64,000 bases of DNA from Cyanidioschyzon merolae. Lineage: Eukaryota. Location: the NCBI GenBank assembly GCA_000091205.1, contig AP006492.2. One strand, written 5' to 3'. Of this stretch, positions 9,133-56,373 are shown one piece after another. The translations under genes were made by a program, and so were the position numbers. The first letter of the stretch is position 1. Each line of letters opens with the position of its first letter. Below the pieces are notes generated by a model. It had not been told where the DNA came from. It did not search any database and saw nothing but the letters and a program-made list of their open reading frames with translations.

Positions 9133-9351
9133 CTGTCATACTGCGCCCTACCTCCAAACTCCATTTCGCATATCTCCTTTCGGATATACTGGCTGTTTCG
9201 CACGTTCCATCGTGCGGCGGTTTCTGGCTTTGAGCACCCGCCGCCGCGCCCCAACCATTTACACGGATGCATCACGGAGGCAGACTGACATTGCCATACC
9301 GTATGAGGCATCGGCTCGAGGCGCCGTTCCTTCAACACAGACTCCACGTGC

Positions 9352-18632: not shown

Positions 18633-18651
18633 GGTGCCCTGGTTGTATACT

Positions 18652-27008: not shown

Positions 27009-27116
27009 AAGCACCATCCATACGCCCAACTGACGCTGCCAATGACAACGATCAAGTTTGCAACGAGGAGAAACGACGACGTAGTGAGCGGATTTTTCGA
27101 CATGTTTGGGAACCTT

Positions 27117-28160
27117 CACCAATGTCAGCATAAAAAGGCACGGTTCTTCGAACTCGGGCGGGTACACAGATCTTCAGATCTCGCCCTAAATTACATAAAA
27201 AACATCCCTTGTCTGCCCTGGAACGACTGCTTCCATTCCTGTCTCGTATCCGCGGCTGTAACAATGTCGGTCTCATCTGTCTCTCCAGCTCCCTTGTTGG
27301 CAATCAATGGACGTTCATGGCAATGTAGAAAGTGTCGGTTTCGCCACTCGCAGCCGCTGTTGACGCATTTCATGCACAAGCGCGAGTTGCCACCTACACG
27401 TCGCTCGCTACAGTCAGCTCATTCGTATACAGCGTCGGTGTGCGCTTTGCAGCGGTCACACTTGACACTGGACAGGTCTTCCCTTACGTCCAGCATACAC
27501 GCTCGTCCGAAGGCTACTTTGCAGTGCGTACACGATTGTTGCAACGCTCAGTACACGTCGTCCGGGGGTACCTGGGGCCATCCTCGATGACGACCCCGGT
27601 TTCCGTGTTCGTGAACGCCCACTACGATGACGGGTTTCTCTTGGGGATGATGGCCCCAAATAGGGGATGACTTTTTTTTTCGAGCGGAACTGATTACTGG
27701 GCTTGACCAGGTTCAGTAAGCTTATGGAATGAGCTTGTGCGAATGCCATCAAGAAACGGTGTCGACTACTTTTCCACCTCAGTCCGCTGGCGCGAATCAC
27801 TGCACCCACGGGTGCCTTGAAACAGAAACATCGAAAACATGCAAGACGCGTGATGCGAGCATGCACTATGTGACAAAACAAAAATAATGCATTCTTTTGC
27901 GTATGAATTCGATGGTCGCGGCTGTTATTTCATGAACCTTGCCCTAGAGCGCAGCGAACCATATCGATTTCGATTACGTACCGAGTTCCTGTAACAAAGC
28001 GTCAAAGGAGTGACTCCGAAAAGGCAACTCAGCACCAGGAAACTACGTATGAATCCTGAAGCGCTTCTTGCCATCGTTCGAGTGCCGGGGCTGCACATCT
28101 AGAAAACGGTCGGAAAAGCATGCAAAGTACGATCACAGCAGGAAGGTCAGAGTTTCATTT
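27117..28160 (-). repeat. interspersed repeat family B, copy 2 (~1.05 kb, inverted)
   Basis: Reverse-complement identity to 37372-38415 (B3). Contains a T10 run at ~27668. Starts ~110 bp after the FAN1-like stop. Confidence 0.8.
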
Positions 28161-28570
28161 CAATCAAACATGGTTGCAGCTCGAAAGTCCAGGTGCTTCG
28201 CCGAACCCAGCTCGGCTCTTTGGCACAGACTGCTGGGGAGAGAGCTTCGCTTAACGACACCTGGTCAGGCTCTGGATCGAGGATATTGTTGTCTTCAGCG
28301 ATCCCATGTTTCTAGACAACTTCCCGTTTACGTCTGTTCTTTGCGATCCTCTCATGTACCTTTATAATCGAAAATCATCATGTTTAGGATGTGTGCCTTG
28401 CCGCAAGCGAGCCTACAGCATCAATGCCAACATCGGGTGCGTGTCAACGCGTTCGCTGCTTTTGTATGCGGCGCCGAGTCAACTTCGACAAAGCCTTAGC
28501 GTTCTGTGATCGCTAGATAGACACCCGTCCCCAAATGTTCTTGGCCTGCTTGTTCGTTCGCGACAAAATA

Positions 28571-31963: not shown

Positions 31964-33562
31964 ATGGAGGGGTTGACTGCGTTTGTAGCGTGTGCTGGGG
32001 TTCGGAGGGCCGTGCTTTCCTGTTCGGCTCGTTTCTGTAGCCAGAGTAAGGTTCCGAACGCGTACAACGCTGGCACGAAGCTCCTAGTAACAGCCTGCCG
32101 AGGCGGCGCTCGGCTCCTTGTGGCAGACGCTGCTTCAGAAGTAGCTGCTAAAGCAGAAGAGCCGCCCGCCAGGGGCAGTCTCGAGAGTCGCCAGAAGCAA
32201 AACGGTTCGAGAACGGCAGACGACCGCATTGTCGTGATCGGGTTGTCGCACCACACTGCGAGCGTTGACCTGCGTGAGCGGCTCGCAGTTCCTGAGTCAG
32301 AATGGAAGGAGGCTGCAGCTCTCGTTGTCGAGGCCTGCCCAAGCGTGAACGAGGTTGCTTTGCTGTCCACCTGCAACCGCTTCGAAGTGTACTTTGCATG
32401 TGCTGACACGAAGCGCGGTATTCTAGAGGTAACAAAGTTCCTCAGCCAGCGGAGCGGTATCGAAATACCAGAACTGCGAAGCCATCTCTTTATGCTCGTC
32501 GAAGAGGATGCCATTTGGCACTTGTTACGCGTCTCCGCTGGTTTGGACTCGCTCGTTGTTGGTGAAGGTCAGATCTTGGCACAGGTGAAACGATGCTACG
32601 AACGAGCGACGGAGCCGGGCGGCATGGCTGGAAAACTGCTCACAAGGCTGCTCAACGCAGCAGTGTCAGCGGGGAAACGTGTTCGGACTGAAACAGGTAT
32701 ATCGAAAGGAGCTGTTTCCATTAGCTCGGCTGCTGTAGAACTGATGGTTGCACGGTACGCAGACGACATCCTGGGGGGCCTACATGCAGCTCCAGTTGAG
32801 GATATGAACAACGTTTCAGCCGCTTTGACGAGTACGCAGGTCTGCATTGTTGGAGCTGGTGCCATGTCACGGCTTCTAGTGACGCACTTGCTCTCACGAG
32901 GTGTGACCCGCATAACGATCGTGAACCGGAGCTTGCAGCGGGCACGTGACCTGCTTAAGCAGTTTCCAGATGTAGATATTGTTATCCGGCCTATGAGTGA
33001 ATTGTTTGATGCGGTGATCGAAGCAGATGTCGTCTTTACATCCACATCATCTCGTGAACCTCTTCTTACCGCGGATAACCTTGAAGAACACTTCTCCAGA
33101 GCTGAAGCCGCTCTGCACTCTCGAATCTTCATTGACATATCGGTTCCTCGGAATATTGCGGAGGACGTGAATAGAATCGACGGTGTTCACGCGTACAACG
33201 TTGACGACCTTAAGGCGGTGGTGGCACGTAATCAGCTACGTCGCCGCCGCCTGATGATCGAAGCGGAAAATCTGTTGCGGGATGAGCTGCGCCAGTTTCG
33301 AAACTGGCAGTCGAGTCTGGGTTGCATTCCGGCGATAACGAAGTTGCAGGATCGAGCGGAGGATATCCGGCTCGAGGAGCTGGCGAAGGTTACGGGGAAA
33401 CTCGCCGACTTGACGGACAAGGAACGCGATGCTGTTGAGCGTCTCACCAAAGGAATCGTGAACAAGCTTCTACATGGCCCGCTAAGTCATCTTCGGGGGT
33501 TACAAGACATCGACGAGCGGCGAGAAACAATTAAGAACTTGGAGAGCATGTTTCGCCTATAG
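31964..33562 (+). CDS. hemA: glutamyl-tRNA reductase (C5 tetrapyrrole pathway) with ~85-aa N-terminal transit-like extension
   Basis: GluTR motifs: 'IVVIGLSHHTASVDLRERLAV', 'LLSTCNRFEVYFA', 'GEGQILAQVKRCYE', NADPH-binding 'VCIVGAGAMSRLLVTHLLSRGV', C-terminal dimerisation helix. N-terminus Ala/Arg/Ser-rich. Confidence 0.85.
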   Translation: MEGLTAFVACAGVRRAVLSCSARFCSQSKVPNAYNAGTKLLVTACRGGARLLVADAASEVAAKAEEPPARGSLESRQKQNGSRTADDRIVVIGLSHHTASVDLRERLAVPESEWKEAAALVVEACPSVNEVALLSTCNRFEVYFACADTKRGILEVTKFLSQRSGIEIPELRSHLFMLVEEDAIWHLLRVSAGLDSLVVGEGQILAQVKRCYERATEPGGMAGKLLTRLLNAAVSAGKRVRTETGISKGAVSISSAAVELMVARYADDILGGLHAAPVEDMNNVSAALTSTQVCIVGAGAMSRLLVTHLLSRGVTRITIVNRSLQRARDLLKQFPDVDIVIRPMSELFDAVIEADVVFTSTSSREPLLTADNLEEHFSRAEAALHSRIFIDISVPRNIAEDVNRIDGVHAYNVDDLKAVVARNQLRRRRLMIEAENLLRDELRQFRNWQSSLGCIPAITKLQDRAEDIRLEELAKVTGKLADLTDKERDAVERLTKGIVNKLLHGPLSHLRGLQDIDERRETIKNLESMFRL

Positions 33563-34026
33563 ATTCGCGATAGCAGCCCAGAGAGAAGCTCGCCTGGCTT
33601 TGCCTTGAAAGGGCATTGCCGGGATGCGGGAGACCTGCATAGCTGCGTGTGATCGCTACGGTAGCTACATCAGTCAAGAGCTCGCGACTGAAGTGTACCT
33701 TTGCCGAAAATGCGTGGCACATGTCTCATACGATCCTAACGTAGCCTAGATGACTTCGTGAACTAGTCTGGACATTTGTAGCCTTATGTTCTCTGATGCT
33801 TCAGTCTGTATATGAGGCGACCGCAGATAACGGGTTTATACCTACCGACTTTTCACGCGACACATAAAAAAGTTATGGGCGCCTTGGACTTGCTCGTTGC
33901 GAGCCCGACACTATCGAAGAACGTCGCAATCCCAGAAAATTGCTACTGTTGTAGTCTTTGAACTCAACTTGGTCTCACCCTCGATGCTTGTGATCAAATG
34001 CATTCTCGCAGTGTATCGTAGGTTAC

Positions 34027-34900
34027 CGAAACCAGTATGAAATGTACCACACAGATCTGATACCGATTGCCTTCAGGATAATTCCTACTAAACAGTGCAA
34101 CGAGGACTGCATTCCTCCTTCAGGCCAGTGATACCACAGTACTCAGATGGTTGAGGAACACTGACAGAACCACGAATATGCGCTCAGCGCCAAAAAACCG
34201 ATATTTTCAAAGCCTGCTTGCGGTCAATGGTGTAAAACGCCCCGTTGATGACTCTAAACAAAGCAAAAGCCACGATAGTAGCCACCACTGGCGCCTGTGA
34301 GGCTCAACATCTTGTTCGTGTGGTTCTGGAAACAAAACACTGGGATACAGTCGCAAAAACAGAGTCCTAGATCAGGAACGGCCATCTTCCACCGAAACCG
34401 CATCGACAGCATTCCTGGAATGTTGCAATCCGCATAATGCAGCGGGACGTCGGTCTGTTGCTTTCAGTCGATGAGACTTCCTTCTGGCGAAGCAGTCCGA
34501 GCGTATATGGGTATTCGCTGCGAGGGAGCCCGTTCTAAGTACAATCGAACGCGAAGAGAAACGGGATACCATCATCTGTTCGAACCGCAGTGGATTCATT
34601 TTGCGACCTCAGTTTGGACTCCCAGTCAAGGCTCATACACAGCATCAACCACTTTATGGAATTATTGAAGACTGTCCCCTGACGCCTAGCGATGTCCTTG
34701 TATTGGACAAGGTGATCATTCACCTTTCCCTTTGCGTTCGAAGTTTTGCCGATTCTATCGGGGTAGGGCTGCTTTCTGTTCCTCAGTAGGCTTCGTATTT
34801 TAACGGCATCAAAGGAGCGTTTCGTATCGTGGAACGTAATCATCGCACCACTGGCCGAGTCGCTGAAGCGTTCAGCACACAGTGACTCCGAGGCACATTT
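34027..34900 (+). repeat. repeat family C, copy 1 (874 bp). 5' part of a composite 1.35-kb unit together with the adjacent TnpB-like fragment.
   Basis: Reverse-complement identity (>95%) to 48936-49809. Shares spurious ORFs (MNPLRFEQMMVSRF..., MKKCASESLCAERF...). Confidence 0.8.
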
Positions 34901-35099
34901 CTTCATTCTTGCGAAAGTCACTCTCCGTCGGAGAAGTTCCCCAACTTAGGGCGTAAACAAGCGCATTCATTTGAAGAAATGAAAAGCCAGGGGACCTAAA
35001 GGACATGGAAGCCGAGGAGGCTGAAGGGCCGGTGTCGCCGGCTCCCGCAAAATAAACGAGCGGAATCCTGTTCTCGCTGACCATCGAGCGAAGAAGAGA

Positions 35100-35410
35100 G
35101 GAGATGGGCGAAACAAGGCATTTGTCCTACGGGGCGATGAAAAGACTAATGTGGCACAGAGGGCACAAATTCTGATAATCATGGCATTAATGAGTTCCAT
35201 CAGAGGCACCAAACGCATGGAGTTTGTGAAACGAGAAATTAACACTGCAATCAGTATCAGCGGATGTGCGGTTCTGAGGAAGAGGCCTCCGGAGTTGAGA
35301 TAATCCAAATTTGTGGGGGAATTTCTCAAGGTGGAATTCCACGGCGACAAGTTGAAGCCAGTAGTAAGGGGCCGGCCGAGAACGACTGAGAGGCGTCTGC
35401 ACATCGGTGG
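35100..35410 (+). pseudogene. TnpB/Fanzor-like C-terminal remnant (ends '...RMEFVKREINTAISISGCAVLRKRPPELR*', stop at 35303) plus conserved 3' tail (to ~35410)
   Basis: Aligns to copy-2 C-terminus 'KQRMEFVNRGFNAAISIRRCAVLKTRSAELTRA'. Tail 'gactgagaggcgtctgcacatcggtgg' matches tails of the other copies. RuvC-III Asp replaced by Glu. Confidence 0.6.
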
Positions 35411-36969
35411 CGGACGTTTTGTCTAGGGCGGGCGGTGCGCCGCTCACCATCAAACTGCACCGCCTATACAACGTTTGTCGCTCGCAAAGCATTCATTGTT
35501 TTCGGTGTGTAGAGCGTGGGTATATGATTCCCCACGTTCGTTCAGTTCTGGGCCGTCTGGGGCGCCAGGTACGTGCACCTCTGGGACTCAGTGCTCGACC
35601 CGTGAGAGTCTGGCACCGCGATCCGAGGATTCCCAGCTGGTCGCACCGCTATATTTGCTGGGTAGGTGCGCTAGCATGTTCGGAGCAGCGTCTGCAGCGT
35701 CCACTCGGGAGCCTTCTGCAGAAGATGTGTAAGAGAGGGCTTAGTATGCCCTCAGCAACTCGTTCTAGTCCTTTGGAGACGGTTCCCGTTCCTACGATGG
35801 GAGAGTCTATCACAGAAGGTACACTTGTGGCGCTGTTAAAACACGTTGGCGACGCGGTGAAAGAGGACGAGGTTGTGGCACAAATCGAGACGGATAAAGT
35901 CACGGTTGATGTTCGATCTCCTGTATCTGGAGTAATACGGGAGATCATGGCAGCCGAGGGTGACAACGTTACCGTTGGTAAGGACTTGTTCCGAGTTGAG
36001 GTGGGCGCACAAGGCGAAACAGTCGCGGCACAGCAGCGCCAGGCAGAAAAGCTTTCTCAGAGTGAACCTGAGCCCAATCACATCGAGCCGCAAGAAGAGC
36101 GATCAGGAGGGCCAGCAGGGTCGCCACCGCCACCACCGGCAGACGTTGAGCACGGTGAAGAGCACGCAGAGGCAGCGGCTGCGCAACTCACGGGGCGCTC
36201 TGTTGTCCAGCGTGGAGCAGCGGCAGCTGCAGCTGCAGGCGCGCTCCTGCAACAGGACGAAGCCGGCGAGCGTCGTGTTCCCATGAGCCGCATGCGGCGT
36301 CGTATTGCAGAGCGGCTTAAGCATGCTCAGAATACTGCTGCTATGCTAACGACATTCAACGAATGTGACCTGACGAGCCTTTCGGAAATGCGCGCAAGCT
36401 TTAAGGATGGTTTCGAGAAACGCTATGGGTCAAAACTGGGATATATGAGTGCCTTTGTGAAAGCCTCAGCGATTGCACTCGAGGAGCAACCTGAGGTGAA
36501 TGCTGTAATCGATGGCGATGAAATTCTCTATCGAGACTACGTGGATATATCTGTCGCAGTAAGCACGCCTACCGGACTTGTGACCCCGGTGCTGCGTGGA
36601 GTGGAGAAGATGAGCTTTGCGGATATTGAACTGCAGCTGGCCGATTTTGCAAAAAGAGCTCGAGAAGGTCAGATTCAGTTGGAGGAGCTCCAAGGCGGTA
36701 CGTTCACGATCTCGAACGGAGGCGTATTCGGCAGTCTTCTCAGTACCCCCATCATTAACATGCCACAATCGGCAATTCTGGGCATGCACGCGATTCAGAG
36801 ACGGCCAGTCGTTGTCGGAGACGAGATCGCTATCCGGCCTATGATGTATTTGGCCCTGACGTACGACCATCGCTTAATAGACGGTAGGGAGGCAGTGACG
36901 TTTCTACGTAGAATCAAAGCGCTCATTGAGGATCCGAGAAGAATGCTAGTTGGCGTTTATGGCTTTTGA
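35407..36969 (+). CDS. DLST: dihydrolipoamide succinyltransferase, E2 component of 2-oxoglutarate dehydrogenase (mitochondrial)
   Basis: Single lipoyl domain '[42 protein letters not shown]'. Catalytic '[24 protein letters not shown]'. SucB-like '[30 protein letters not shown]'. The Met at 35524 is a plausible true start. The first 40 codons overlap the TnpB-remnant tail. Confidence 0.85.
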
Positions 36970-37371
36970 AAGTTCCTACAGATAGATATCTGTTGCAGAT
37001 CTCTTAACCTTCGCCTCTGGTAAATCCTGCTCATGCTATTCGGAGCACTCGGTACGCTTTGCATCGTGCTGGGCGATCGCGCATGCTGCTCCCAGAAGAC
37101 GACGCAAACCAAAGCATTCCAGAATAATCCGCATATAGCACGTGTTGGTGCCCAAAGCACACCGTCTCAGCAAGCGCAATGTCGCTGAAAAGATGAGCCT
37201 ACATACGCTCACCAATCGCAAACTCGAATTAGAGCCCGTCTAGGCACCGCAAAGCTTTTCTGTAACCGCTGGTGACCACGGAAGTGGATCCGACGCCGCG
37301 GCACGCGTCTGCGGTAGGCTCGGGACCCAGACGGCTACAGCCGTCCGACCCGTCTAGTGAAGAATCAAACT

Positions 37372-38415
37372 GAAATGAAACTCTGACCTTCCTGCTGTGA
37401 TCGTACTTTGCATGCTTTTCCGACCGTTTTCTAGATGTGCAGCCCCGGCACTCGAACGATGGCAAGAAGCGCTTCAGGATTCATACGTAGTTTCCTGGTG
37501 CTGAGTTGCCGTTTCGGAGTCACTGCTTTGACGCTTTGTCACAGGAACTCGGTACGTAATCGAAATCGATATGGTTCGCTGCGCTCTAGGGCAAGGTTCA
37601 TGAAATAACAGCCGCGACCATCGAATTCATACGCAAAAGAATGCATTATTTTTGTTTTGTCACATAGTGCATGCTCGCATCACGCGTCTTGCATGTTTTC
37701 GATGTTTCTGTTTCAAGGCACCCGTGGGTGCAGTGATTCGCGCCAGCGGACTGAGGTGGAAAAGTAGTCGACACCGTTTCTCGATGGCATGCGCACAAGC
37801 TCATTCCATAAGCTTACTGAACCTGGTCAAGCCCAGTAATCAGTTCCGCTCGAAAAACAAGTCATCCCCTATTTGGGGCCATCATCCCCAAGAGAAACCC
37901 GGCATCGTAGTGGGCGTTCACGAACGCGGAAACCGGGGTCGTCATCGAGGATGGCCCCAGGTACCCCCGGATGACGTGTACTGAGCGTTGCAACAATCGT
38001 GTACGCAATGGAAAGTAGCCTTCGGACGAGCGTGTATGCTGGACGTACGGGAAGACCTGTCCAGTGTCAAGTGTGACCGCTGCGAAGCGGACACCGACGC
38101 TGTATACGAATGAGCTGACTGTAGCGAGCGACGTGTAGGTGGCAACTCGCGCTTGTGCATGAAATGCGTCAACAGCGGCTGCGAGTGGCGAAACCGACAC
38201 TTTCTACATTGCCATGAACGTCCATTGATTGCCAACAAGGGAGCTGGAGAGACAGATGAGACCGACATTGTTACAGCCGCGGATACGAGACAGGAATGGA
38301 AGCAGTCGTTCCAGGGCAGACAAGGGATGTTTTTATGTAATTTAGGGCGAGATCTGAAGATCTGTGTACCCGCCCGAGTTCGAAGAACCGTGCCTTTTTA
38401 TGCTGACATTGGTGT
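37372..38415 (+). repeat. interspersed repeat family B, copy 3 (~1.05 kb)
   Basis: Identity to B2 (inverted) and partially to B1. Internal imperfect palindrome around 'ggggccatcatcccc...gaggatggcccc'. Confidence 0.8.
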
Positions 38416-39331
38416 AGTTCTCTTTTAACTGATCGCAAACAACGCACCTATGCCGACATTTCACATGCTGTGATGTCGTGCCTGTGGTACAAGCTCAGCG
38501 CTGACACCTGGTAACCCTGCATTGCAAAAAGTTCTGCTATCCAGGATGCACAATTGTCAAGATTCCGCTCGTGATGCCAGGCACCGAAGCGCGAACCAGG
38601 ATGATGCTCCGCATAAAGATTTACTAGATATCTCTCTCGCGGGGAAGACCCTGCCAGTATGTATGAGTAATGGACAACTCTTGACTGCCTTAAGCTTCCC
38701 CGAAAGGACAAAGGCTCTTCACTATTTGTGCGGGTGCTTTACTTGCGTGTTTGAACTGTCGCAGACTTTGGTGCACTGCCAATACCTAAAGGGAACTTCG
38801 GGAATGAGCCACCAGGCCAAACGCACCGCCGCTCTGCGCTGAGAGCTCTCAGAATATTTTTGAGTACTAGCATGCTGGAGTTCGCAGACTCGTACTGCTC
38901 CGGTGCTGTGCATCGCGAAGCGTAGAGCCGAACTTCTCACATTAGCGGTATGTTAGGGGTTTCCGACAGAGACGAGAGTTCGCGCTTTGAGCTGTACCAG
39001 CGCTAGACGTTCTAGAAAATCAGGTATCTATACGTAGTTTGATCATCTACGCTGAAAGCTCTGCAAGTATTGAACGAAGAAAAAAAGCGAAGTTGGGAAT
39101 CTTCCATGTTACCACTACACCAGCAGCGCAGCAGGATGCGCTGCCCGGGAATCGTGCGGGATTACATAACCCGGGGCAGAAGAAGATTCCATATATCAAC
39201 GCAACTTAATCTCCAATTCAGTATATAAAGGTCGAGCTATTGTGACATTTAATCGGAACCCGGCCGCCGTACTGCTGGCTGCTCGAACCTACATATTTCA
39301 CGATCCGTAGTTGTGAAGTCGCTCTTGGGCG

Positions 39332-40075
39332 ATGCCTCAAGTCTCTGGCGACCTGCGTCGTTACGAACTTGAGCTGTCGCATGTTATAGAATCAGCAAAT
39401 GCAGATATTAGCAGCCTCGCCTCCGAAGCTGGTGCTGAAGCTCGGCGACACGTCGTGTCCAGAATAACGCACTGGCTGCGGACGGCGAACGACTTGCTCG
39501 CCCGGATGGAGTTGGAGGCCAAATCCACCGAGGGTGATGACCTCGACAGGGCGGCCGCGGAATCCGTAGTCTCCGACGGAAGGCAACGAGTCGTGCGCTT
39601 GAGGCGAAGTCTGCGGGGTGTGGAGCAGGCACTGCAGCGAGAAGAACTAATTTCGCGCTCTCAGCAATCCTCGGGTCCGCGGGTCGCCCGCGAGGTGGAC
39701 GCAACCGACGCGCCCTTGCTGGACACCACGAAGGAGCACCGCGCTGGTGTAGCTGGTGTAACGGACACACTCGTGAAAGCTTCTCTCCACATCCAGGATT
39801 CAAAGCGCGTGCTTGCTGAAACAGAGTCCGTTGGTGCGAATGTTCTGGCGGACCTTGAAGCTCAGGGCCGCACGCTTGAGCGTTCGTATAGCCGCTTGCA
39901 GAGTATGGGTTCTCGTCTGCTCTCCAGCAGTGGGATCATCTCTACGATGCGTGGCACAGAGCGAATGCGACGACTGCTTATCCTTGGATTGGTAGGTGCC
40001 GTTCTTCTGTCTATTGGTGCGTTGATGACGATCAAAGTTTGGCCGCACAAAGGCGGCGTTGTTGACGGGAATTGA
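39332..40075 (+). CDS. Vti1-like Qb-SNARE (tail-anchored)
   Basis: C-terminal SNARE heptads 'VLAETESVGANVLADLEAQGRTLERSYSRLQSMGSRLLSSSGIISTMRGTERMRR' followed by TM anchor 'LLILGLVGAVLLSIGALMTIKVW'. N-terminal three-helix region resembles the Vti1 N-domain. Confidence 0.6.
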   Translation: MPQVSGDLRRYELELSHVIESANADISSLASEAGAEARRHVVSRITHWLRTANDLLARMELEAKSTEGDDLDRAAAESVVSDGRQRVVRLRRSLRGVEQALQREELISRSQQSSGPRVAREVDATDAPLLDTTKEHRAGVAGVTDTLVKASLHIQDSKRVLAETESVGANVLADLEAQGRTLERSYSRLQSMGSRLLSSSGIISTMRGTERMRRLLILGLVGAVLLSIGALMTIKVWPHKGGVVDGN

Positions 40076-42981
40076 TGTGTGCATGCTGCACTGTACTCAA
40101 TCCAGACTGGCATCTGGGGTTCTTGAGACGAATTACTTGGACATGAAGCGTGAGTATGCTCGAGCTACCAGCAGCAACAAACTTTTCGACGTGTGCACGC
40201 GGATGTTCGGTATGTTGCTGAGCAAAGGCCCTAATGTCAAAGCTCACCGGCCATGCCGTGACTGTGGTACTCCAATGTTCTTGGCGCGAGGAACAGAGTT
40301 TGGCCAGCTCACGGATAGACCATTTTTCTCCTGTCAGCAGCAATGCGCGCTTGCTCTAATGCAGATATTTTTCTTGTAAAGAAAGATCAAACGTATACAA
40401 TTTCAGCTTCCAGGTGCTACTATCTACAGGAAAACTGTAGAAGGGAGCCTTTCCCAAGAATCCAGCTAAGCTTCGCTAGAATGCGTCAGAAATTTCACCC
40501 CGCTAAAATGAATATCGTTGAACATGAACGATCGCTCCAACGTGGATCGCCGTTTCCAGGGTTTCGCTGACCCATGATCGCTAAACATACCCAAACGGTT
40601 GCATCGCTCTGGATATAATGTTTAGAGTTGTCTATGTGCTGCACTCGATTAAATGTCAAGCTCCCTTACTATTGTTCGATCGCTCGAAAAACACCCTGTG
40701 ATGACGAAACGCTCTGGGACCGTGACTAAAACGGACTTTCTGTCAGGCACCCCTGCGTTTTTGCGTGATATTGCCGACTTGTACCAAATAATAAAGCACC
40801 ATTATCGTACTCCAAATGCCCAAGGGAACCGTTCCCCGTGTATATATACGGCGTTCCTGCCTTACCGTGTTGCTGACTGCAAAAAATTGGGAACTTTTCT
40901 CGAGGCGGTGAACAACTGCCCCTTCGCCCAGCCACTGAGTTTCTTTCATCGGAATTGCTCGGCGTTTTAGCAGATTGCGCGCATTGGAGACTAAGCGATT
41001 TCCTCGTTATTTTTTTTGAAATAAAGCTGCTGGGCGCACTGGAAGCACAGAACATTTCCTGATGTTCGTCGGGCGGTTCAAGTCTCGGTAAAGAGAGTGC
41101 ACGCGCACATTTGTTGCGGAAGAAATTCCATCTCAGCAAGCCACGCACCTTCTATCGCCTCCCAACCTGACGTTCGACCAGCTTACTGTGCACCTTTCTG
41201 TGCGTCCAGGTCTGTTTATCTCTCCTCTCATCTGGCGGTTTCCGGGTCACCCATGATTTTGCATTTCTTTATGTCGTACTAAATTTCTCAATAGGAATCG
41301 CAGAGAATCGATTCCTGCACAGGCTGTACCATTCGTCGAAAGTGCAGCAGCGTAGCTCTCGTGCTTTACAGCACGTCAAGCGAATATGCTCCTTTCAGCA
41401 AAGGACTCGTCTTGTCTTACATTTCGTTTTCAAGGTCATTAAAAAATAGTCCGAATGTATGCCTCTCGTTCCGGTACAATGAGAACGGTTAGCGACTCAG
41501 AGCGGCATCAGCCACTCGAGCCAAAGATTATCGGCTTGAGTCATTGTGACATTCTTAGACACTCTGGCTGTAGTGAACTTAGCATCAGCCTCTGCTCGAT
41601 GCGAAGTTCAGAGCATCGACATGGGTCCTGATGCCGTCATTCCACTTGTTGGTATGCATCCTGGCTCCTTCCATGCCTGATTCACGTAATTAGTCAGCTC
41701 TGAGAAAACTGAGCAGCTTCATCTGCCTGTTTTCAAGCCCTCGGCTCCAGTCTATTGATTTAGAGGTACTGCCACGGCCTATATGCTCTGCAACCGGGGT
41801 TCCACGCGCACCGCAAAGTCGTTTCCTGCATCTACATTAAACGGCAGAGAATTCATCTAGTTCTTCGACGCACTCCGCGCCCTCACAAAAGACATGCGGA
41901 TGGATTTGCACTCGGTCGCTGCCCACCCCGCAGACTTCTTTCAAGTTATTCCATTAAAATGAAAGTCTCTGTTCGATTTTTGCCACTGTTCCCTCCAAAG
42001 TCCCTCGAATCCCTCATAATAGCTCGAAGAGGCCAGCCTTTGCTCACTGAGAAGTCCATGCAATACGGTACACCGGTTTCTGCCGTAATATGCTGACCCT
42101 CGATGTAAGATATATGGACCAAATCGAGTAGACGCTATAAGAGACAATGCCACTCGAATTTGGGGAGGGAGCGTACTCAGATCTGGAAGGTTTCGTCCAG
42201 GAAAACCTTGCAGCACAAGATGGAAGGAACACGTGCAGAAAGTTTCAACCATCCTCATGATATGACTTCTGTCGGCCGAATGCCGAGAGCAAGACGAAGA
42301 ATAGGTATGATAGAAACTGGCTCTCGCTATCGTTGCGGCATCCCATCTGCCACCACCGGCTCGCAATTTGCTTCCATCGATGTCGCAAGAGCCCTCTCCG
42401 TCAAAGATCGCTTAATTCCGCCCGACGCGGGTAGGCACAACGGGTACTGGGCCAAGAGTATGCGCTTCATACAGCGCTCGAGATTTAGCGGGTGCATGGT
42501 TTTGTTTTGTGGGTTAGCTTGATACTTTTCGGCACCAGCGATGAAGGTACTTTCATTATCGATGTGGCATGAGCAGACGACAACGTATTCTGGGAAGCAC
42601 GTGTTCTGATTTCTGATTCTGCGATGACGGCGCTTTACATATTCCACCCTAAGCATCAGTCGTGTTAACTCACGAAAGGTCGATTGAAACATTTCAATGG
42701 AATGCGGACAGCTGGCGTTCTGCATCGAGAGTTCGTACACAGAGTTGTGAGACGGGGAGCTTCAGTTCAAGGCGAGCGGAGCGACATTCCTCGAATGAGG
42801 AGGTACACGGTGCCTAATGGCATCCTGCTCCCTAGTTTTGGAAGATTCTCCCGGGTGAAGTGTTTTAGCAGGGAGTCTTTGATTGCGTTTCCAGAATAGT
42901 CTTTTCGCTTGGAAACTTTTCCTCTTCTGTGTATCCTCTTCGACAGTTCAGGGGAAATTTCCATGTTTTTCTTTTACTGTG

Positions 42982-44176
42982 CGAGGTGGCATGGATGCGG
43001 TGGCAACACTCCATGCCCGGTTTTCTCTCGAAATACAGACGCGATGGACAGGCGTTGATACAGAAACTCGCTCCCTCCTATGTATACGTCTCGTTCTACT
43101 TGAGGATCCATTCCTCACCTTTCTCGAACTGGGAGCCCCAACCGACCGGAGAGCTCGTTTCCGCTCGTTTCCGCCCACGAGCCGAGCAGCAACACAGCAG
43201 TTCCTGTGCACCAATAGCAGACAACGCATTGTCGAAGAACGATTCGCCATCGAACCGAGTCGCGGATGTAAAAGACTCGCCTGCGCATTGGTGCCCATGG
43301 AAATGGCGTTCGCCAACAGAGCAGATGCGTTCGACTGAACTCGACCGGGGCGAATAGGCTGGTACGAGGAGCAGCGCAGCGCCAATGTCACCTGCGTGCT
43401 CGTTGACCTCTTCAGGGTGATGGAAAGCGACGTTGACGCAGAGTCGCACGGAGCCGTGTAAGAACGAGACGCCGTGGAATGCTGCGAAGAACAAGCATGA
43501 GGCGTTCAAGACTTCGACCCGTTTTCCGACGCAAAGCAAAACACACGACTCAGTCGCCGTCTGGGCAGATACTCTCGGAATGCGCGTGTGTCGCTTCTCT
43601 GTGAACACTTGTTGCTCCCGCTCTGGGTGCCCGTACACATGTCCCCCGTTTCTCCCGAACGAGGTCTCATCGAGTGTGACGAACATCTGCCATCTGCATG
43701 ATAAGCGTTCGCATGCCCCCGCGAAACTGGCAGCACGGAGCTCAGCGCGGAACGTTCTCGCACAGAGGCGCGTTTTTTCCTGTGTCCATGTGCGTCCCTT
43801 TATCACCGTCCGTTTCAACTGTGCGGAGATTGCACACCTTGTGTCTCTTAGATGCTATTTCGCAGATAATATATGTGGAGTGGAACGCATTCATGTCGGG
43901 AATGCAGTGCAGACAGAGCCAAATGTGCTCTGTCTGGTGAGTACGACTTGCAGCAAAAGGACCACGAGAACAGCGGCTGATCTACCTGCCGACCAGAGAA
44001 TACCTGACATGGACAATAAAGACCGTTTTCTTGGCAAGCTAGCACAGACGGCAGGAAGTGTTCCCGCGACCGTTCTCCCACCTACGGGATACAACCTTTT
44101 GTTGAATATTCGCGAGGTAAGAAAGGTATAGCAAAGAAAGCCGTGCTGGTACAGGTGTTCAAGTATTTATTTATCT
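42982..44176 (-). repeat. interspersed repeat family A, copy 2 (truncated to the first ~1.2 kb, inverted)
   Basis: Reverse-complement identity to 18652-19846 and 45524-46715. The 'cagataaataaatacttgaac' terminus is at 44176, facing RPL19. Confidence 0.8.
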
Positions 44177-44606
44177 GTGGGAAATAGAAAAAGATCAAAG
44201 TAGACCGCCTCTATAGAAGAGCAACTGTGTACGAAGGCCTCTGCCTGAACTATATGCAGCACCTAGATCCAATCATTGAGAATACCGTTGCACGTTCGAC
44301 ATGTTTCTAAAGACACATTCTAGATACGCACACGTTCGCAGATGTTTCAGGTATTTGGATGCTCGTCGCGTGTCCGCCAGCAGCCTCATTGAGGAACAGC
44401 TCATTATCCGCTTGACCAATTCTTTCCAAAAGCAACCGATTCGATGTGCGCCTACGATGCGCTGGGGGTCGCCCACGGCATGTTCTAAATTTGGTTCCAA
44501 GTTTGTCCTTGTTATTACAGAATTGATCGGATTGGGTGCAGCGGCGTCCGGCGCCACCGCAGTGCCGAAACGAATGAAGAGTCGTCTTCGTCTAAGAGTA
44601 ACAACC

Positions 44607-45266
44607 ATGGTTACGACGTCGATCAAGCTGCAAAAGCGTCTCGCGGCAGCTGTTGCCGGGGTTGGTAAGAAGAAAATATGGGCTGACCCGGCAGAGATCG
44701 AGAAAATCGCTCTTGCGAACTCACGCCAGTCCGTGAGGAAGCTGCTACGGGATGGCGTCCTTGTCCGCAAGCCGCCAGCAATGCACTCGCGTGCGCGTGT
44801 ACGTGAGCGCCTTGAGGCGAAGCGCAAAGGTCGCCACACAGGACCAGGTAAGCGGAAGGGTACAAGGGACGCACGCTTGCCCCAGCGCGTCGTTTGGATG
44901 CGGCGGCAGCGCGTTCTACGACGTTTGCTGCGCAAATATCGCGCGCAGGGTAAAATCGATAAACACCTCTACCATGAGCTTTATCTCAGGTGCAAAGGCA
45001 ACGTCTTCAAAAACAAGCGAGTGCTTATGGAGCACATACACCGGGCTAAAGCAGAGAAAGCACGTGAGAAGGCCATTTCTGAGCAGCTGGAAGCGCGCCG
45101 TATGAAGAACAAACTCCTTCGCGAACGTCGAGCAAATCGCGCGGAGGAACGCCGGTTGAAGGAAGCAGGCATTTCAATGGAAACTACTGAGCGAGAGGGT
45201 GAGACTGCGAGCAGGTCTCGGCGCCGACGTGGCCGCCGCGACGAAGCACTTGCCGCTGATAGCTGA
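44607..45266 (+). CDS. RPL19: 60S ribosomal protein L19e (eL19)
   Basis: Translation from the ATG at 44607 (aacaaccATGG context): '[56 protein letters not shown]...[41 protein letters not shown]...[35 protein letters not shown]', a strong match to eukaryotic eL19. The upstream in-frame extension from 44301 is not L19-like. Confidence 0.9.
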
Positions 45267-45523
45267 ATGCGCTTAAGCACAATGCGGACGGCTTCGTTCC
45301 CGGTAGCCTGTTACGCAGCATCTGGAATCCTCGTCGAATGACATACCAAACTGAGGCACCTAAGAACTTGCATCCCTGATACTGAAACGCAAGTCTATCG
45401 AGTTCATCGGTCCGCTTCCGCGCTACATTGTACTCCGGCGGTCAGCAGCAGCTCGATTGGACAGCGCACAAGAAGGCACTTTCACTCTACCAGGGACGCT
45501 TTAAGCGTCTTGTTCTACTCAGA

Positions 45524-48003
45524 TCAGTAAATACTTGAACACCTGTACCAGCACGGCGTTCTTTGCTATACCTTTTCTATCTCGCGAATATTCAACAAAA
45601 GGTTGTATCCCGTAGGTGGGAGAACGGTCGCGGGAACACTTTCTGCCGTCTGTGCTAGCTTGCCAAGAAAACGGTCTTTATTGTCCATGTCAGGTATTCT
45701 CCGGTCGGCAGGCAGATCAGCCGCTGTTCTCGTGTTCCTTTTGCTGCAAGTCGTACTCACCAGACAGAACACATTTGGCTCTGTCTGCACTGCATTCCCG
45801 ACATGAATGCGTTCCACTCCACATATATTATCTGCGAAATAGCATCTAAGAGACACAAGGTGTGCAATCTCCGCACAGTTGAAACGGACGGTGATAAAGG
45901 GACGCACATGGACACAGGAAAAAACGCGCCTCTGTGCGAGAACGTTCCGCGCTGAGCTCCGTGCTGCCAGTTTCGCGGGGGCATGCGAACGCTTATCATG
46001 CAGATGGCAGATGTTCGTCACACTCGATGAGACCTCGTTCGGGAGAAACGGGGGACATGTGTACGGGCACCCAGAGCGGGAGCAACAAGTGTTCACAGAG
46101 AAGCGACACACGCGCATTCCGAGAGTATCTGCCCAGACGGCGACTGAGTCGTGTGTTTTGCTTTGCGTCGGAAAACGGGTCGAAGTCTTGAACGCCTCAT
46201 GCTTGTTCTTCGCAGCATTCCACGGCGTCTCGTTCTTACACGGCTCCGTGCGACTCTGCGTCAACGTCGCTTTCCATCACCCTGAAGAGGTCAACGAGCA
46301 CGCAGGTGACATTGGCGCTGCGCTGCTCCTCGTACCAGCCTATTCGCCCCGGTCGAGTTCAGTCGAACGCATCTGCTCTGTTGGCGAACGCCATTTCCAT
46401 GGGCACCAATGCGCAGGCGAGTCTTTTACATCCGCGACTCGGTTCGATGGCGAATCGTTCTTCGACAATGCGTTGTCTGCTATTGGTGCACAGGAACTGC
46501 TGTGTTGCTGCTCGGCTCGTGGGCGGAAACGAGCGGAAACGAGCTCTCCGGTCGGTTGGGGCTCCCAGTTCGAGAAAGGTGAGGAATGGATCCTCAAGTA
46601 GAACGAGACGTATATATAGGAGGGAGCGAGTTTCTGTATCAACGCCTGTCCATCGCGTCTGTATTTCGATAGAAAACCGGGCATGGAGTGTTGCCACCGC
46701 ATCCATGCCACCTCGCATAGTTAAGGGGCACAAGAAGAAGGAAGCGGTATATATAAGCATCAACGTTGCGTTCGAACTACTTTGCAAAGCGCGGTGGCGG
46801 CGCTTGGACAAGGTTTCTCGATAACAGGAAAGAAATACCGGAAACGTTTATCCGGACGATGGAGACCGACGGGATGCCAACCAGCATGCACCTTGCGGCA
46901 CGTATGCCAGAGTCGAGCAGTCAGACTCATTTCCAACCGTTCAAGGTTGATGAACAAACAGAGACTTTGTGGTCGGGGTCGATCCGTGACACTCGGCATC
47001 ATAGCCGTCTCCGTACCCCTGAATCAAGAGGGCGGTGCTAAAGACCTACAAGGAGAGCAGATAAAGCAGCTCGAATTTTCCAGTGCTCGATATGATCGGC
47101 AATCGGGCATGGTAGACGCCAGGCGGCATACCATCCAGAGGAATGGTTGCTCGAGAGCCCATCTCGACGCCCTGAGGACGGTAGCGCGCAGAGGGTAACG
47201 CTTTGTGCGCCTCACTCAGAGGGGGAGCTCATGAGCGTCAAACTGGCTCCAGCGGACGATCTTTGACAAGAACGCGTGGTGCCGAGCAGGGAACGCACAT
47301 GGTGCCGGCTCCGCAGAGGCGAGAAGCTCGTGTTCGCAGACTTTGTGGATGATGTGGGAAACGAAGTGACCGCCCAGTAGGGTCGATTGACGGTAGCCTA
47401 TAGCGCTGGACCTACTCCAGCTCACAAAGTCTGCAGTGATGCTCGCTCCCGTCGAGAGCTTGCTACAAGTTCAGGGATTGATTCTGCACGATTTCGACCG
47501 ACGCATTCACACCGTCATGCACGCAGCACGATCTCGGGAACAGGCTGAAACTTGTCGAGAAGAGGCGATTGAATTAGAGACCGTTGCACGAGATGGTGTG
47601 CGATACGCTGCTTGAACGCCCGATGGCGAGGCAATCGGAGATGCAGAGACTGCTGTGGTGTGCTTTCACCAGCCACAATGTGCTCAGGTTCTTTCTGCAT
47701 CGCGAGTTGATCGCCTCGATACACATCTGGCAATGTCTCGTGGTTCCGAAGCGCACAGCGGCTGTGTCGAGCGAACTTTCGGGAAAATCGTCTAGTTCTG
47801 CTTGTTGGCATTGCACTGACTGCCTGCAAGCTGTCGGTAAAAGCGCATCAGTGTTCAAGAACTGCCCGACTGAATGCCCGCTCGGAGCATAGCGCTGGTA
47901 CGGTATGGGTGAGCAATCGAGCGAGGCTGAAGCGGCCTGCTCATACAACGGGATCGGTTTCTCGGGGCAGAGGATGATTGGTAATGGTGTTCGAGTATTC
48001 GAT
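45524..48003 (+). repeat. interspersed repeat family A, copy 3 (full length, ~2.48 kb)
   Basis: Near-identical to 18652-21147. Its 5' end lacks 'ataa' relative to copies 1 and 2 (cag-taaatac vs cagataaataaatac). Confidence 0.8.
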
Positions 48004-48481
48004 CTTACTGCGTTTGAAGCAACCTAGAGTCCTGTTCCAAATAATCTCTTTTGCCCGAGATAGAACCCATTTGCATTTGCGCCGATATGAGCAGGTCCGT
48101 GTGGCAACGTGGATGAGAGCGTTCTGGAACTCGAATCAGAAAGGTGCGTTCCCTCTCAGCATCCAGCTAAACGCAACTTCTGAAACACGAAACTCTATTC
48201 GATCCGTAGATTCGACCAGCGAATATTTCGTCTTCCCTTGCTCAGAGAATTTTGTACGGATAGAGATACGATGGAACCGCGGCCTCCGGGAGTTCCGCTC
48301 ATGCACATCAACTGTTGCAACGGGTGGTGCTTTTGGCAGTCCCCATCGCACTGCAAGAACCTGGTCCATCTGCGTTGCGTCAACGAGCACCACGACAGAA
48401 GAGCTACGAATTTTCACAGTAATTGTTCTCAGATGGCGTCGCAACATACATTTGTTCAATGGAACGAAAACGTTTCGCGAC

Positions 48482-48890
48482 CGGAGGATAAATTAAGCCC
48501 CACCCGCAGACGTCTCCCAGCCATTTTCGACTGGTCTCCTGCTATCGTTTCAGTTTTTATCCAGCCACATTTCGAGACTGGTAGGCCCTCCCACAAAGTT
48601 GGATCGCCTCTGCTCCGCGGGCCTCGTCTGCAGCACCGCACATCTTCTGATATTGAGAGCGGCGTTAATGTTTCTGTTTATGAACTCCATACGTTTCTTG
48701 TCGCCGCTTGTACTCTCCAGTGCAAGTGATACTCGAACTCGTGCCCTCTGTGCTATTTGCTGCTTTGCCAGCTCTCTGTACTTTTCTATTGCCGAAGCGC
48801 TTCGCTGGCTCTTCTCCATTGCGAACTTTTGAAGAGTAGACCCCAGCTCATCCCATAGATTTCTTGATTTTGAAAATGAATGCACTACTT
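48482..48890 (-). pseudogene. TnpB/Fanzor-like C-terminal remnant (ORF 48550-48885: '...KKRMEFINRNINAALNIRRCAVLQTRPAEQRR...') plus conserved 3' tail (48482-48549)
   Basis: Aligns to copy-2 C-terminus. RuvC-III Asp replaced by Asn (N-x-NAA-x-NI). Tail reverse-complement 'ggctgggagacgtctgcgggtggggcttaatttatcctcc' matches the copy-1 tail. Confidence 0.65.
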
Positions 48891-48935
48891 TCTGCTCGTA
48901 GGTGAGGGTCGTGCCGGAGGGATAAGGAATTGCAG

Positions 48936-49809
48936 AAGAATGAAGAAATGTGCCTCGGAGTCACTGTGTGCTGAACGCTTCAGCGACTCGGCCAGTGGTG
49001 CGATGATTACGTTCCACGATACGAAACGCTCCTTTGATGCCGTTGAAATACGGAGCCTACTGAGGAACAGAAAGCAGCCCTGCCCCGATAGAATCGGCAA
49101 AACTTCGAACGCAAAGGGAAAGGTGAATGATCACCTTGTCCAATAGAAGGACATCGCTAGACGTCAGGGGACAGTCTTCAATAATTCCATAAAGTGGTTG
49201 ATGCTATGTATGAGCCTTGACTAGGAGTCCAAACTGAGGTCGCAAAATGAATCCACTGCGGTTCGAACAGATGATGGTATCCCGTTTCTCTTCGCGTTCG
49301 ATTGTACTTAGAACGGGCTCCCTCGCAGCGAATACCCATATACGCTCGGACTGCTTCGCCAGAAGGAAGTCTCATCGACTGAAAGCAACAGACCGACGTC
49401 CCGCTGCGTTATGCGGATTGCAACATTCCAGGAATGCTGTCGATGCGGTTTCGGTGGAAGATGGCCGTTCCTGATCTAGGACTCTGTTTTTGCGACTGTA
49501 TCCCAGTGTTTTGTTTCCAGAACCACACGAACAAGATGTTGAGCCACACGGGCGCCAGTGGTGGCTACTATCGTGGCTTTTGCTTTGTTTAGAGTCATCA
49601 ACGGGGCGTTTTACACCATTGACCGCAAGCAGGCTTTGAAAATATCGGTTTTTTGGCGCTGAGCGCATATTCGTGGTTCTGTCAGTGTTCCTCAACCATC
49701 TGAGTACTGTGGTATCACTGGCCTGAAGGGGGAATGCAGTCCTCGTTGCACTGTTTAGTAAGAATTATCCTGAAGGCAATCGGTATCAGATCTGTGTGGT
49801 ACATTTCAT
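48936..49809 (-). repeat. repeat family C, copy 2 (874 bp, inverted), abutting the TnpB-like remnant
   Basis: Reverse complement of 34027-34900. Confidence 0.8.
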
Positions 49810-50660
49810 ACTGGTTTCGATCTCCTGCTATACACCACAGCGGGAGTGAAGCAAAATTGAGTCGAACGACTTTGAGCCTAAGTGCACTCTTTAAATTTGG
49901 TGAGCTGATATGATGCCTACCAGGAGTAGCAGTGCAATTTGCGTGTTTTTCACCAGACCACTAAAAAAGAGCGCATGTGCGGACCTGGAGCACGAACTAG
50001 CTCGAGAATACAGAAGTGATGTAAACCACCGATGTGTCGTGCACTGATGGTTCAGCGACATTGCAGGTCTGAGAAGCAGTATGAAAAATTTGGAGTCAGT
50101 AATCTTATCGCCTCAATAGGCCGGGAAGCGTCTTTCGGAAAGTACTCCAGTGCAAGTATTAGATACGGTGTGACAAATTTGAAGCCATTCATCAGGTCTC
50201 TTTGAGCGATGTGGATACATCTTTCAGAAACTCAGGCTAAAAGTGTTCATAATTATGGAATAAAATGGAGCTGTGCCTCTGCTCCATTCAGCGCCGGATT
50301 CGTTCATATTCTCAAAAAAAAGCTCCTTCCAGATGCTCCTCCCGTTCTGGAGAAAGTATTCGAGGAGATCGTTATGTACGCTGCATTCCGTTCACAAACA
50401 CAGCATTGCATGATGCGATAAAAACACTAGAACGCGTCCGGTGTACCGGGTTAGGCTGCTACCAAGGTTCTGCCGAACGTGGAAAACTCTAAAACAGCAC
50501 AAGACGCTGAATAGCGCGCACCGCTAGAAACAAGCCTATGCTGGTCACGTCGCGGCGCGTGGTGGAACAACGAATCCGTGTATTCCACATACACTGAAGT
50601 ACCGCATGAAAATTCCCAAAATTAAGCTGCGGTGAAATAAGTAGAACTGAAGTACTGCTT

Positions 50661-51017
50661 TCAACTTTCGACGTCAAAACGAAGCGCCTCCAGCTCCTCG
50701 AGTACGTCGTCTGGCAACTCGGCCAAGATACCAATGGCATAACAGCCCGGAACTTTTCGGCTTAGCCGCTGCCACTTTGCAACCCAGCTCACTTTCGGTC
50801 TATACAGGGCCACTAGACCGGAAAACTCTGCAGTGGTAAACGTCAGGACCCTCTCGCGGTCACCAGTTCCAGCTTCAAATAAGCCCGGACAGTTTTCGCA
50901 CCCGTAGGCTAGAAACTGCGCTACCGACTTGACCAAGCCACAGGATAGGCAGGCCCGAAGCTTGCTGGACTGGACTTCAGAGGGCACCACAACAATGTTC
51001 TCAGAGGCTTCAGTCAT
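50661..51017 (-). CDS. SPT4: transcription elongation factor SPT4 (DSIF small subunit)
   Basis: 'LRACLSCGLVKSVAQFLAYGCENCPGLFEAGTGDRERVLTFTTAEFSGLVALYRPKVSWVAKWQRL' matches the SPT4 zinc-ribbon (C-x2-C...C-x2-C) and NGN-binding region. The start is taken at the Met at 51017 (MTEASEN...), which gives the typical ~119 aa. The ORF continues in frame upstream to 51134. Confidence 0.8.
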   Translation of the reverse strand: MTEASENIVVVPSEVQSSKLRACLSCGLVKSVAQFLAYGCENCPGLFEAGTGDRERVLTFTTAEFSGLVALYRPKVSWVAKWQRLSRKVPGCYAIGILAELPDDVLEELEALRFDVES

Positions 51018-55612: not shown

Positions 55613-56373
55613 TCAAAACCAAGAAGGACCAGAGCGGAGGGCTCCATCGGACCACAGCGCTAACATCGCTGCTGCAGGGCGATCCTGCCTTTGTTTCTGG
55701 AACTCTTTGTTCACCCCAAAGATCGAAATTTACTCTAGGTGTTCGACAGTTATCGTCTCGCGTGCAGCAAACAGAAGCGATTGCTCCGGCTGAGCGAGAT
55801 AGCGACAGTCGGTTTCTCTCGCCACCTTGGGTATGGGCTAAGCTGCTTACTGGCTCAGAAAATCAACTGAGCAAACAGTGCCCGACCAATATAGGTGGCT
55901 TTACGCGCAGCGCTGCACACTGAAGCGTCGAAGTCGAACGAGAAGTTCATTCATTGATTGACTGCAGCGCTTTGAGGCAAGCCTATCCTCCGGCGCGCCT
56001 TTCATGATGGAGTGGGACGACGAAGCGACGTGACCGCTGGCATTCGCGCGATGCAGCTGCGGCAATTCTTATTTCCGACGACAAAACGTTCACAATTACC
56101 GATGGATACCATATCGTGGGATGGGTATTGGCTTTAGGGAAAGCGTCCATCATGCTGCTGCACCCTACCTGCAAGTTCCATTAATTATATTTCCGTTCGG
56201 ATACCCTGGTCGTTTCGCACGTCCTGCGGTGCGCCCGGTGTATCCTGTATGCACCCGCCTTTGAGTTTGTACCGCTAGACAAGATGCATCACAGAGAAAG
56301 AACGGTTTTGTCACACCACAGAGCGCGTTGGCCCGAGGCATCGTTCATCTGAAACGGGGTCGGGGTTCATATC

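Follow-up and report, generated by a model that had tools for sequence, protein, structure and literature searches.

A three-gene block inverted in Cyanidioschyzon merolae between Fanzor1 remnants that share a near-identical 885-bp core

Inversions produced by nonallelic homologous recombination (NAHR) between inverted transposon copies or segmental duplications, as in the yeast Ty inversions and the human int22h inversion of F8, retain the repeats and break no genes. Here, we describe a comparable locus on chromosome 10 of Cyanidioschyzon merolae 10D, within a window of 64,000 nucleotides (the whole stretch of DNA analyzed; contig AP006492.2, assembly GCA_000091205.1), where a block carrying DLST, Vti1, and RPL19 lies between two inverted arms built from remnants of Fanzor1 transposons. 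As in NAHR inversions, inverted homologous repeats occupy both breakpoints and persist after the event, lineages differ in the orientation of the block, and every gene is left intact; the locus differs in that the recombining homology is only an 885-bp island within remnants of 59–72% identity, and in that the event is inferred from comparison. A single Fanzor1 family, CMe-1A, has been described in C. merolae, with approximately 150 copies that are about 80% identical to a consensus of roughly 3 kb and lack terminal inverted repeats (PMC3627910). The 5' 635 bp of CMe-1A are 95% identical to a separate short element, TE-N2_CMe (Bao & Jurka 2013, PMC3627910). The elements studied here share with this pair the host genome, 3-kb full copies, about 70% pairwise identity, a modular 5' region, and tails that represent the C-terminal and 3' part of the same protein family, whereas the arms lack almost the whole open reading frame (ORF) and carry the 885-bp core as their 5' module; this comparison was made with the published description. 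Arm-to-arm gene conversion, known from Y-chromosome palindromes and plastid inverted repeats, produces the same sharp step in identity and the same mosaic of variants between arms, although the tract here is shorter than 1 kb, is flanked by old homologous sequence, and may reflect a single event. Finally, invertible switches such as those of the Hin and Gin invertases and the yeast 2-micron FLP system likewise consist of inverted repeats bracketing a segment, which at this locus may exist in both orientations.

Gene order was compared between 10D and two related lineages. The 10D chromosome carries, in order, a malic enzyme gene (−), FAN1 (+), BRK (−), HemA (+), the left arm, DLST (+), Vti1 (+), RPL19 (+), the right arm, Spt4 (−), and a gene for a 998-aa protein (+). 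In Cyanidiococcus yangmingshanensis (GCA_013995675.1; contig locus L032), where the region is compact and was located through its RPL19 orthologue, the order is a 960-aa gene (−), Spt4 (+), DLST (+), Vti1, RPL19 (+), HemA (−), BRK (+), FAN1 (−), and malic enzyme (+). A third lineage, represented by L047–L050 from at least four samples and with most coding regions 74–79% identical to 10D and 76–82% identical to Cyanidiococcus, has the Cyanidiococcus order, Spt4>DLST>Vti1>RPL19<HemA. Orientation differs between 10D and these outgroups only for DLST–Vti1–RPL19, and this block of approximately 13–14 kb is thus inverted in 10D relative to both outgroup lineages. The breakpoints fall in the Spt4–DLST and RPL19–HemA intergenic regions, the very regions that bear the arms in C. 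merolae, and no arm-like sequence was found in the intergenic regions of either outgroup. Because two armless outgroup lineages share the same order, the 10D orientation is derived, and the arms bracket the inverted block. The initial annotation had proposed from the repeats alone that the enclosed genes could be inverted by recombination and had suggested comparing their orientation across relatives; with the block reversed in two lineages and the breakpoints at the arm regions, this proposal is borne out. The lack of arms in the outgroups also fits the reported repeat expansion in C. merolae (repeat content of 12.7% of the genome vs. 0.59%; PMC9812998). The DLST–RPL19 inversion is not mentioned in the published synteny comparisons (PMC9812998, PMC13353863). 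One of these, a study of the Cyanidiales, worked with blocks of at least five genes (PMC9812998), and the other, which compared telomere-to-telomere 10D with the Yellowstone strain MS1 Ha3, highlighted rearrangements only on chromosomes 3 and 19 at the scale of a whole-genome dot plot (PMC13353863); neither five-gene blocks nor whole-genome dot plots would resolve a three-gene inversion of 14 kb.

The left arm extends over approximately 34011–35435 (+) and the right arm over approximately 48463–49835 (−), with their tails facing inward. A repeat finder and self-BLAST both recovered an inverted pair at 34011–34972 and 48874–49835 (962 nt, 96% identity) and a weaker one at 35154–35317 and 48590–48753 (70–72%), and sensitive blastn merged the two into a single match of 34011–35400 with 49835–48506 (1394 columns, 83%). 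An inverted composite pair with inward tails, as annotated initially, is therefore confirmed, with boundaries moved by 10–25 nt, and on realignment the arms were not unrelated. Identity along the arms is far from uniform. The core (34025–34909, +; 48937–49821, −) spans 885 bp with 13 differences, equivalent to 98.5% identity; a near-identical unit had been noted before, but with a length of 874 bp and with the right arm ending at 49809 and not at 49835. At the inner edge of the core, the final 108 nt are identical and are followed by 76 nt at 59%; at the outer edge, one edge difference and 59 identical nucleotides give way to about 65% identity over some 50–70 nt (z = 4) and then to unrelated sequence. 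In a MAFFT alignment, the segments outside the core reached 64.6% (outer stub), 59% (spacer), and 62.5% globally or 72% in the best local block (Fanzor tail), and the contrast in identity between the core and the combined spacer and tail was extreme (Fisher p = 5e-87). The outer stubs lie at 33955–34024 (+) on the left and 49822–49890 (−) on the right and are weakly homologous (about 65%; local alignment z = 4.0 against shuffles). The spacers, at 34910–35150 (+) and 48852–48936 (−), are also homologous, with about 59–66% identity and z = 8.4 against shuffles. The left tail (35151–35435, +), identified by tblastn of P0007 residues 418–503 (E = 1.7e-16) and by alignment of element 3' ends, and the right tail (48463–48851, −; P0007 residues 387–482, E = 6e-24) each consist of a Fanzor1 C-terminal fragment followed by the element 3' end. 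The arms are thus two old paralogous remnants (59–72%) enclosing one young or homogenized island (98.5%), and describing them as copies of the same composite unit applies to the core only. Nor does the left tail run into the start of DLST, as had been stated, since homology fades at about 35435, some 90 nt upstream of the ATG at 35524. Of the 13 core differences, 11 are C/T and none G/A when a single strand is read, and over all metagenome contigs the counts are 11 C/T and 5 A/G; strand-asymmetric mutation is a possible source of this bias.

A sharp-edged island of identity within old homologous flanks is best explained by one conversion or gap-repair tract. Our preferred reading, to which we assign a probability of roughly 70%, is that the core was homogenized by conversion and that a crossover within it then inverted the block between the Fanzor1 remnants. 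In this reconstruction from sequence, each arm is an internally deleted CMe-1A-type remnant composed of the stub, the 885-bp 5' module, about 90 nt from upstream of the ORF, the C-terminal codons, and the 3' end. In the C. merolae lineage, these two remnants lie in opposite orientation in the Spt4–DLST and RPL19–HemA intergenic regions. Ectopic gene conversion or gap repair would have transferred the core between the arms in one tract, leaving 885 bp of near-identity, and a crossover within the core, possibly part of the same repair event, would have inverted the block of about 14 kb. The crossover is placed in the core because this is the only stretch identical enough to recombine, and a crossover there accounts for the retention of each tail beside its inner gene with exchange of the outer flanks. 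Such an inversion breaks no gene and is probably neutral. The converse order of events, in which the inversion itself created the repeat, would also yield a core of the same age at both ends, as staggered breaks and intramolecular replicative transposition leave inverted duplications at the ends of an inversion. However, a duplication made in this way should be uniformly young and flanked by non-homologous sequence, whereas the flanks of the core are homologous and old (59–72%), and we regard this origin as highly improbable.

The identity of the tails was established through two full-length elements in the same window. Copy 1 (9067–12139, +; 3073 bp) is a pseudogene with one frameshift and one in-frame stop, and copy 2 (56080–59129, +; 3050 bp) is more decayed. 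The two are 69% identical, the 3' ends of both match both arm tails, and blastn aligned the right tail with 11796–12189 of copy 1 and 58785–59136 of copy 2 at 70%. Their length of 3 kb and their Fanzor1-family protein are consistent with CMe-1A as described. Once the frameshift and stop were repaired, the full copies matched 43 JGI metagenome proteins, which carried only DUF8286. Single sequences searched against Pfam, NCBIfam, and the PDB (by phmmer), as well as a shallow profile of 12 sequences, yielded no TnpB or Fanzor match, and a Pfam scan did not detect PF07282 in the ORF pieces of the window or in their closest homologues. An exhaustive profile search collected 2840 representatives. 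A 71-member profile matched Parasitella Fanzor1 (9cf0, E = 1.1e-23), Spizellomyces Fanzor (8gkh, 4.1e-18), and Guillardia Fanzor1 (9cer, 2e-12) in the PDB, and PF07282 (the Cas12f/TnpB TNB, zinc-ribbon domain) was present in 18 of the 71 members, with a best E-value of 2e-8. The Fanzor/TnpB-like label of the initial annotation is thus correct. Copy 1 carries the RuvC-I motif VVGVDPGKKD (GxDPG) and the RuvC-III motif NRDFNAAMNI, both of which are conserved across the family alignment. The arm tails comprise only the last 95–150 codons and the element 3' end, and of these motifs they keep RuvC-III alone, with its Asp replaced (KREINTAISI on the left, NRNINAALNI on the right). With RuvC-I and RuvC-II missing and the aspartate of RuvC-III substituted, neither arm can encode an active nuclease; judged by their motifs, they are dead as nucleases. 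No intact Fanzor1 ORF of about 600–700 aa occurs in the window, each copy being frameshifted, interrupted, or truncated, and intact relatives are present in metagenomes. An AlphaFold2 model of P0014, built on the 43-sequence alignment, reached a mean pLDDT of 50 and a pTM of 0.32 and was too poor for a fold search.

Several further observations concern the Fanzor1 sequences themselves. At least seven Fanzor1 remnants occur in the 64-kb window. These include more divergent pseudogene fragments with 22–47% amino-acid identity to family members, one at 40962–42866 (−), between Vti1 and repeat B, and one in each of the two long repeat B copies (20124–20898, +; 46992–47766, +). A CGTCTGC block is invariant in all Fanzor 3' ends (35380–35440, 48470–48530, 12100–12160, and 59090–59150). 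In the left arm and in the metagenome contig L001, it is followed by a hairpin-like motif, GACG-TTT-(C/T)GTC, just before homology stops, and the block and motif may mark the element end or form part of a guide-RNA scaffold. RNAalifold, applied to only five 3' ends in search of a structured guide RNA (omega RNA), gave a positive covariation term (+3.32 kcal/mol) and compensated changes in 8 of 64 pairs; so small a set does not support a conserved RNA structure, and the 3' ends have no Rfam match.

The composition of the arms upstream of the tails was examined against the full-length copies. Part of the left spacer (34959–35052) matches copy 2 at 56955–57044 (z = 18), just upstream of the point where homology to the Fanzor ORF begins, and each arm is therefore an internal-deletion derivative. 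By position, the core corresponds to the first ~875 nt of the full copies, yet it shows no significant similarity to them (z 1.5–3.1), and the outer stub likewise bears no relation to their 5' ends. Of the transposon termini, the arms keep the 3' end, while the 5' 875 nt are replaced by the unrelated core. No ORF is conserved in the core: the one of 128 aa is disrupted on the right, and none of the core ORFs had a Pfam match. A search of its concatenated antisense ORFs against 5.8 billion proteins found no homologue, a weak negative given that a recorded, exact 75-aa ORF was also missed. No Rfam family or tRNA was detected in the window, core included, and the core showed no similarity to the intergenic regions of the outgroups. 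Outside the window, exact look-up of the 75-aa ORF returned 12 contigs and a 24-mer scan of metagenomes returned four stretches, all from the arm locus. The earlier view of the arms as an internally deleted, non-autonomous derivative accordingly holds for the internal deletion with an unrelated 5' part; a non-autonomous (MITE-like) family with dispersed copies is unsupported, these searches having found the core only at the arm locus. Purifying selection was also considered as the cause of the 98.5% identity and was rejected, given the lack of a conserved ORF, the broken 128-aa ORF on the right, and an implausible 20-fold difference in rate.

The same data bear on the main alternative, in which a young mobile element, or an exchangeable 5' module similar to TE-N2_CMe, gave rise to the core by inserting site-specifically and independently into both old remnants before recombination. 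The edges of the core are razor-sharp, with 108 and 59 identical nucleotides up to its boundaries, and the neighboring A and B repeats are equally young (98.4–99%). Exchange of 5' modules is also documented by the 95% match between the 5' 635 bp of CMe-1A and TE-N2_CMe (PMC3627910). Contig L001, which harbors an intact 752-aa Fanzor1 gene (P0001), is homologous over 9675–12346 to the full copies (9710–12051 and 56734–59137) only from about 645 nt inward; this starting point matches the separate 635-bp TE-N2_CMe module and fits exchangeable 5' modules in the Fanzor1 family. Against an insertion, the core edges show neither a target-site duplication nor a terminal inverted repeat, the core was found only at the arm locus (12 contigs, four stretches, and 408 kb of fetched loci) and encodes no ORF with homologues, and hitting one site twice, each time in the same orientation with respect to the remnant, would demand strong site specificity without an encoded enzyme. 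We therefore consider two insertions unlikely and retain conversion followed by a crossover in the core as the better account.

The state of the locus within C. merolae was assessed in hot-spring metagenome contigs with 98.5–99.7% identity to 10D, fetched through HemA, Spt4, the core ORF, the right-tail ORF, and DLST; these contigs, designated by locus numbers (L), are short-read assemblies that are unable to phase an 885-bp repeat. Eight contigs from nine samples cross the core and together display all four junction types. The junction HemA–core–left tail–DLST, as in 10D, is present in L003 and L004, and the second 10D junction, Spt4–core–right tail–B repeat, in L038, one contig that appears in two samples. 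The ancestral-type junctions, likewise containing the core, are Spt4–core–left tail–DLST (L012 and L031) and HemA–core–right tail–B repeat (L028, L029, and L030). Many contigs end exactly at a core edge (48936 or 34910) or within the core, as expected at a repeat, and no sample yielded contradictory junctions. Core variants are mosaic between the arms across contigs, with only the edge site 34026 linked to the flank. On the HemA side, the 10D junction is associated with the haplotype shared by L003 and L004, and the ancestral junction with the other haplotypes. Together, these contigs hint at an inversion polymorphism within C. merolae. They also address whether the 10D assembly, or the window taken from it, simply mis-orients the block because of the repeat. 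Repeats of this size do break or mis-join short-read assemblies, and the many contigs ending at core edges illustrate this; nonetheless, both 10D junctions are reproduced at about 99.3% identity in independent contigs from other samples (L003, L004, and L038), which argues against an artefact of the reference, and an arm of 1.4 kb is, by our reasoning, short enough to be spanned by Sanger clone pairs. The assembly error feared in the initial annotation thus finds an answer in these contigs, and we consider it barely credible.

Another possibility is that unrelated breakage inverted the block and that Fanzor remnants inserted at the breakpoints, or already lay near them, by coincidence. The recombination event itself was not observed, and such remnants abound in the intergenic regions of C. 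merolae, as the number in this window illustrates. Nevertheless, each breakpoint region holds one arm, the arms are inverted, and they share the sole long near-identical stretch; furthermore, the contigs of ancestral order, provided that they are genuine, already have the core at each of the two junctions. Coincidence is for these reasons very unlikely. A further proposal extends the favored history and does not replace it. The inversion may be segregating or flipping in natural populations, and in a live flip-flop both orientations would segregate or interconvert in C. merolae, with recurrent exchange between the cores keeping the island identical and the A and B pairs behaving likewise. We regard this extension as possible but doubtful. 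If it were true, the A and B pairs included, the region would be a small multi-isomer region in a model alga.

Several points weigh against the sequence of conversion and crossover that we prefer. The event is inferred from its end states and was not observed, and gene conversion between flanks of 60–70% identity is normally inefficient. The nearby A and B repeats are 98.4–99% identical, as is the core, and the youth of the core might also stem from a wave of duplication or transposition common to all of them. The blastn search for a diverged copy of the core, which found none, covered the 408 kb of fetched loci, with the whole 10D genome and Repbase lying outside it. The Spt4 side of the metagenome contigs is in conflict, as one haplotype group shows HemA–core–DLST and Spt4–core–DLST in different samples. 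The ancestral-type junctions come from short-read assemblies without phasing across the 885-bp repeat, so that these contigs do not establish the arms as older than the inversion within C. merolae.

The arms are not the only inverted repeats in this part of the chromosome. Repeat A forms an inverted pair at 27114–28162 and 37371–38417 (1049 nt, 98.4%), with one copy outside the block and one inside, and a third copy at 13176–13817 is about 95% identical to the other two. One contig, L051 (JGI 3300005573), joins DLST–A–FAN1–malic enzyme, as an inversion across A predicts, and may represent a true isomer or a chimeric assembly. Two others, L053 and L002, follow the 10D order. Repeat B forms an inverted pair at 42973–44177 and 45520–46724 (1205 nt, 99%) that brackets RPL19, with 1342 nt between its arms. 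This pair is a potential further flip-flop, and RPL19 is co-oriented with DLST and Vti1 in 10D and in both outgroups. The long copies of B lie at 18648–21142 and 45516–48010. With the exception of the third A copy, A, B, and the arm core are all 98.4–99% identical between copies, a pattern suggestive of a single recent burst of local duplication, transposition, or conversion across this 40-kb region. The 240-aa ORF of repeat B (43096–43818, −; equivalents at 19011–19733 and 45879–46601) gave a sub-threshold match to DDE_3 (E = 0.009; 16 bits against a cut-off of 28.6), a hint that repeat B is a Tc1/mariner-like element carrying a Fanzor1 fragment. A search for a site-specific recombinase, by Pfam scan of ten ORFs from the A and B repeats and the inner flank of the right arm, which covers part of the ORFs of the segment, returned nothing beyond this sub-threshold DDE_3. 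In contrast to the Hin, Gin, and FLP systems, the repeats here are transposon debris, no recombinase was recognized among the ten repeat ORFs scanned, and no promoter or gene fusion changes with orientation; a programmed switch is not supported on these grounds.

Gene identities were assigned by exact sequence look-up of ten long ORFs, six of which are identical to annotated C. merolae 10D proteins, on an 839,707-bp record with CMJ locus tags. The annotated genes of the block are DLST, the 2-oxoglutarate dehydrogenase E2 component and first block gene (35524–36969, +; 481 aa, exact match to BAM80197.1), the Vti1-like v-SNARE (39332–40075, +; exact match to BAM80198.1), and RPL19, which encodes ribosomal protein L19 and is the last gene of the block (44607–45266, +; 219-aa BAM80199.1, with orthologue alignment). 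The outer neighbor of the left arm is HemA, glutamyl-tRNA reductase (31964–33562, +; exact match to BAM80196.1), and that of the right arm is Spt4 (50661–51017, −), which carries PF06093 and whose exact product was found in 52 blocks of the collection. CMJ064C, at 60848–63550, is also identical to its annotated 10D protein. Exact look-ups of the 10D HemA, the 10D DLST product, and the 145-aa left-tail ORF returned no record.

As a genetic model, C. merolae 10D is routinely manipulated by homologous recombination, and the species is now known to have a sexual cycle. Crosses between 10D and Yellowstone strains have become possible (PMC13353863). A 14-kb inversion on chromosome 10 would suppress crossing-over locally and could complicate mapping or targeted integration around DLST, Vti1, and RPL19. 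Mechanistically, this is a conventional inversion between repeats, in which a known transposon family takes part, and thus a new instance and not a new mechanism. It offers a small, clean case of gene order being reshaped, in an otherwise very compact and stable genome, by the repeat expansion particular to C. merolae, and the two breakpoints, the 885 bp that recombined, and the ancestral arrangement can all be identified. Thus, dead Fanzor1 elements matter as recombination substrates even without their nuclease.

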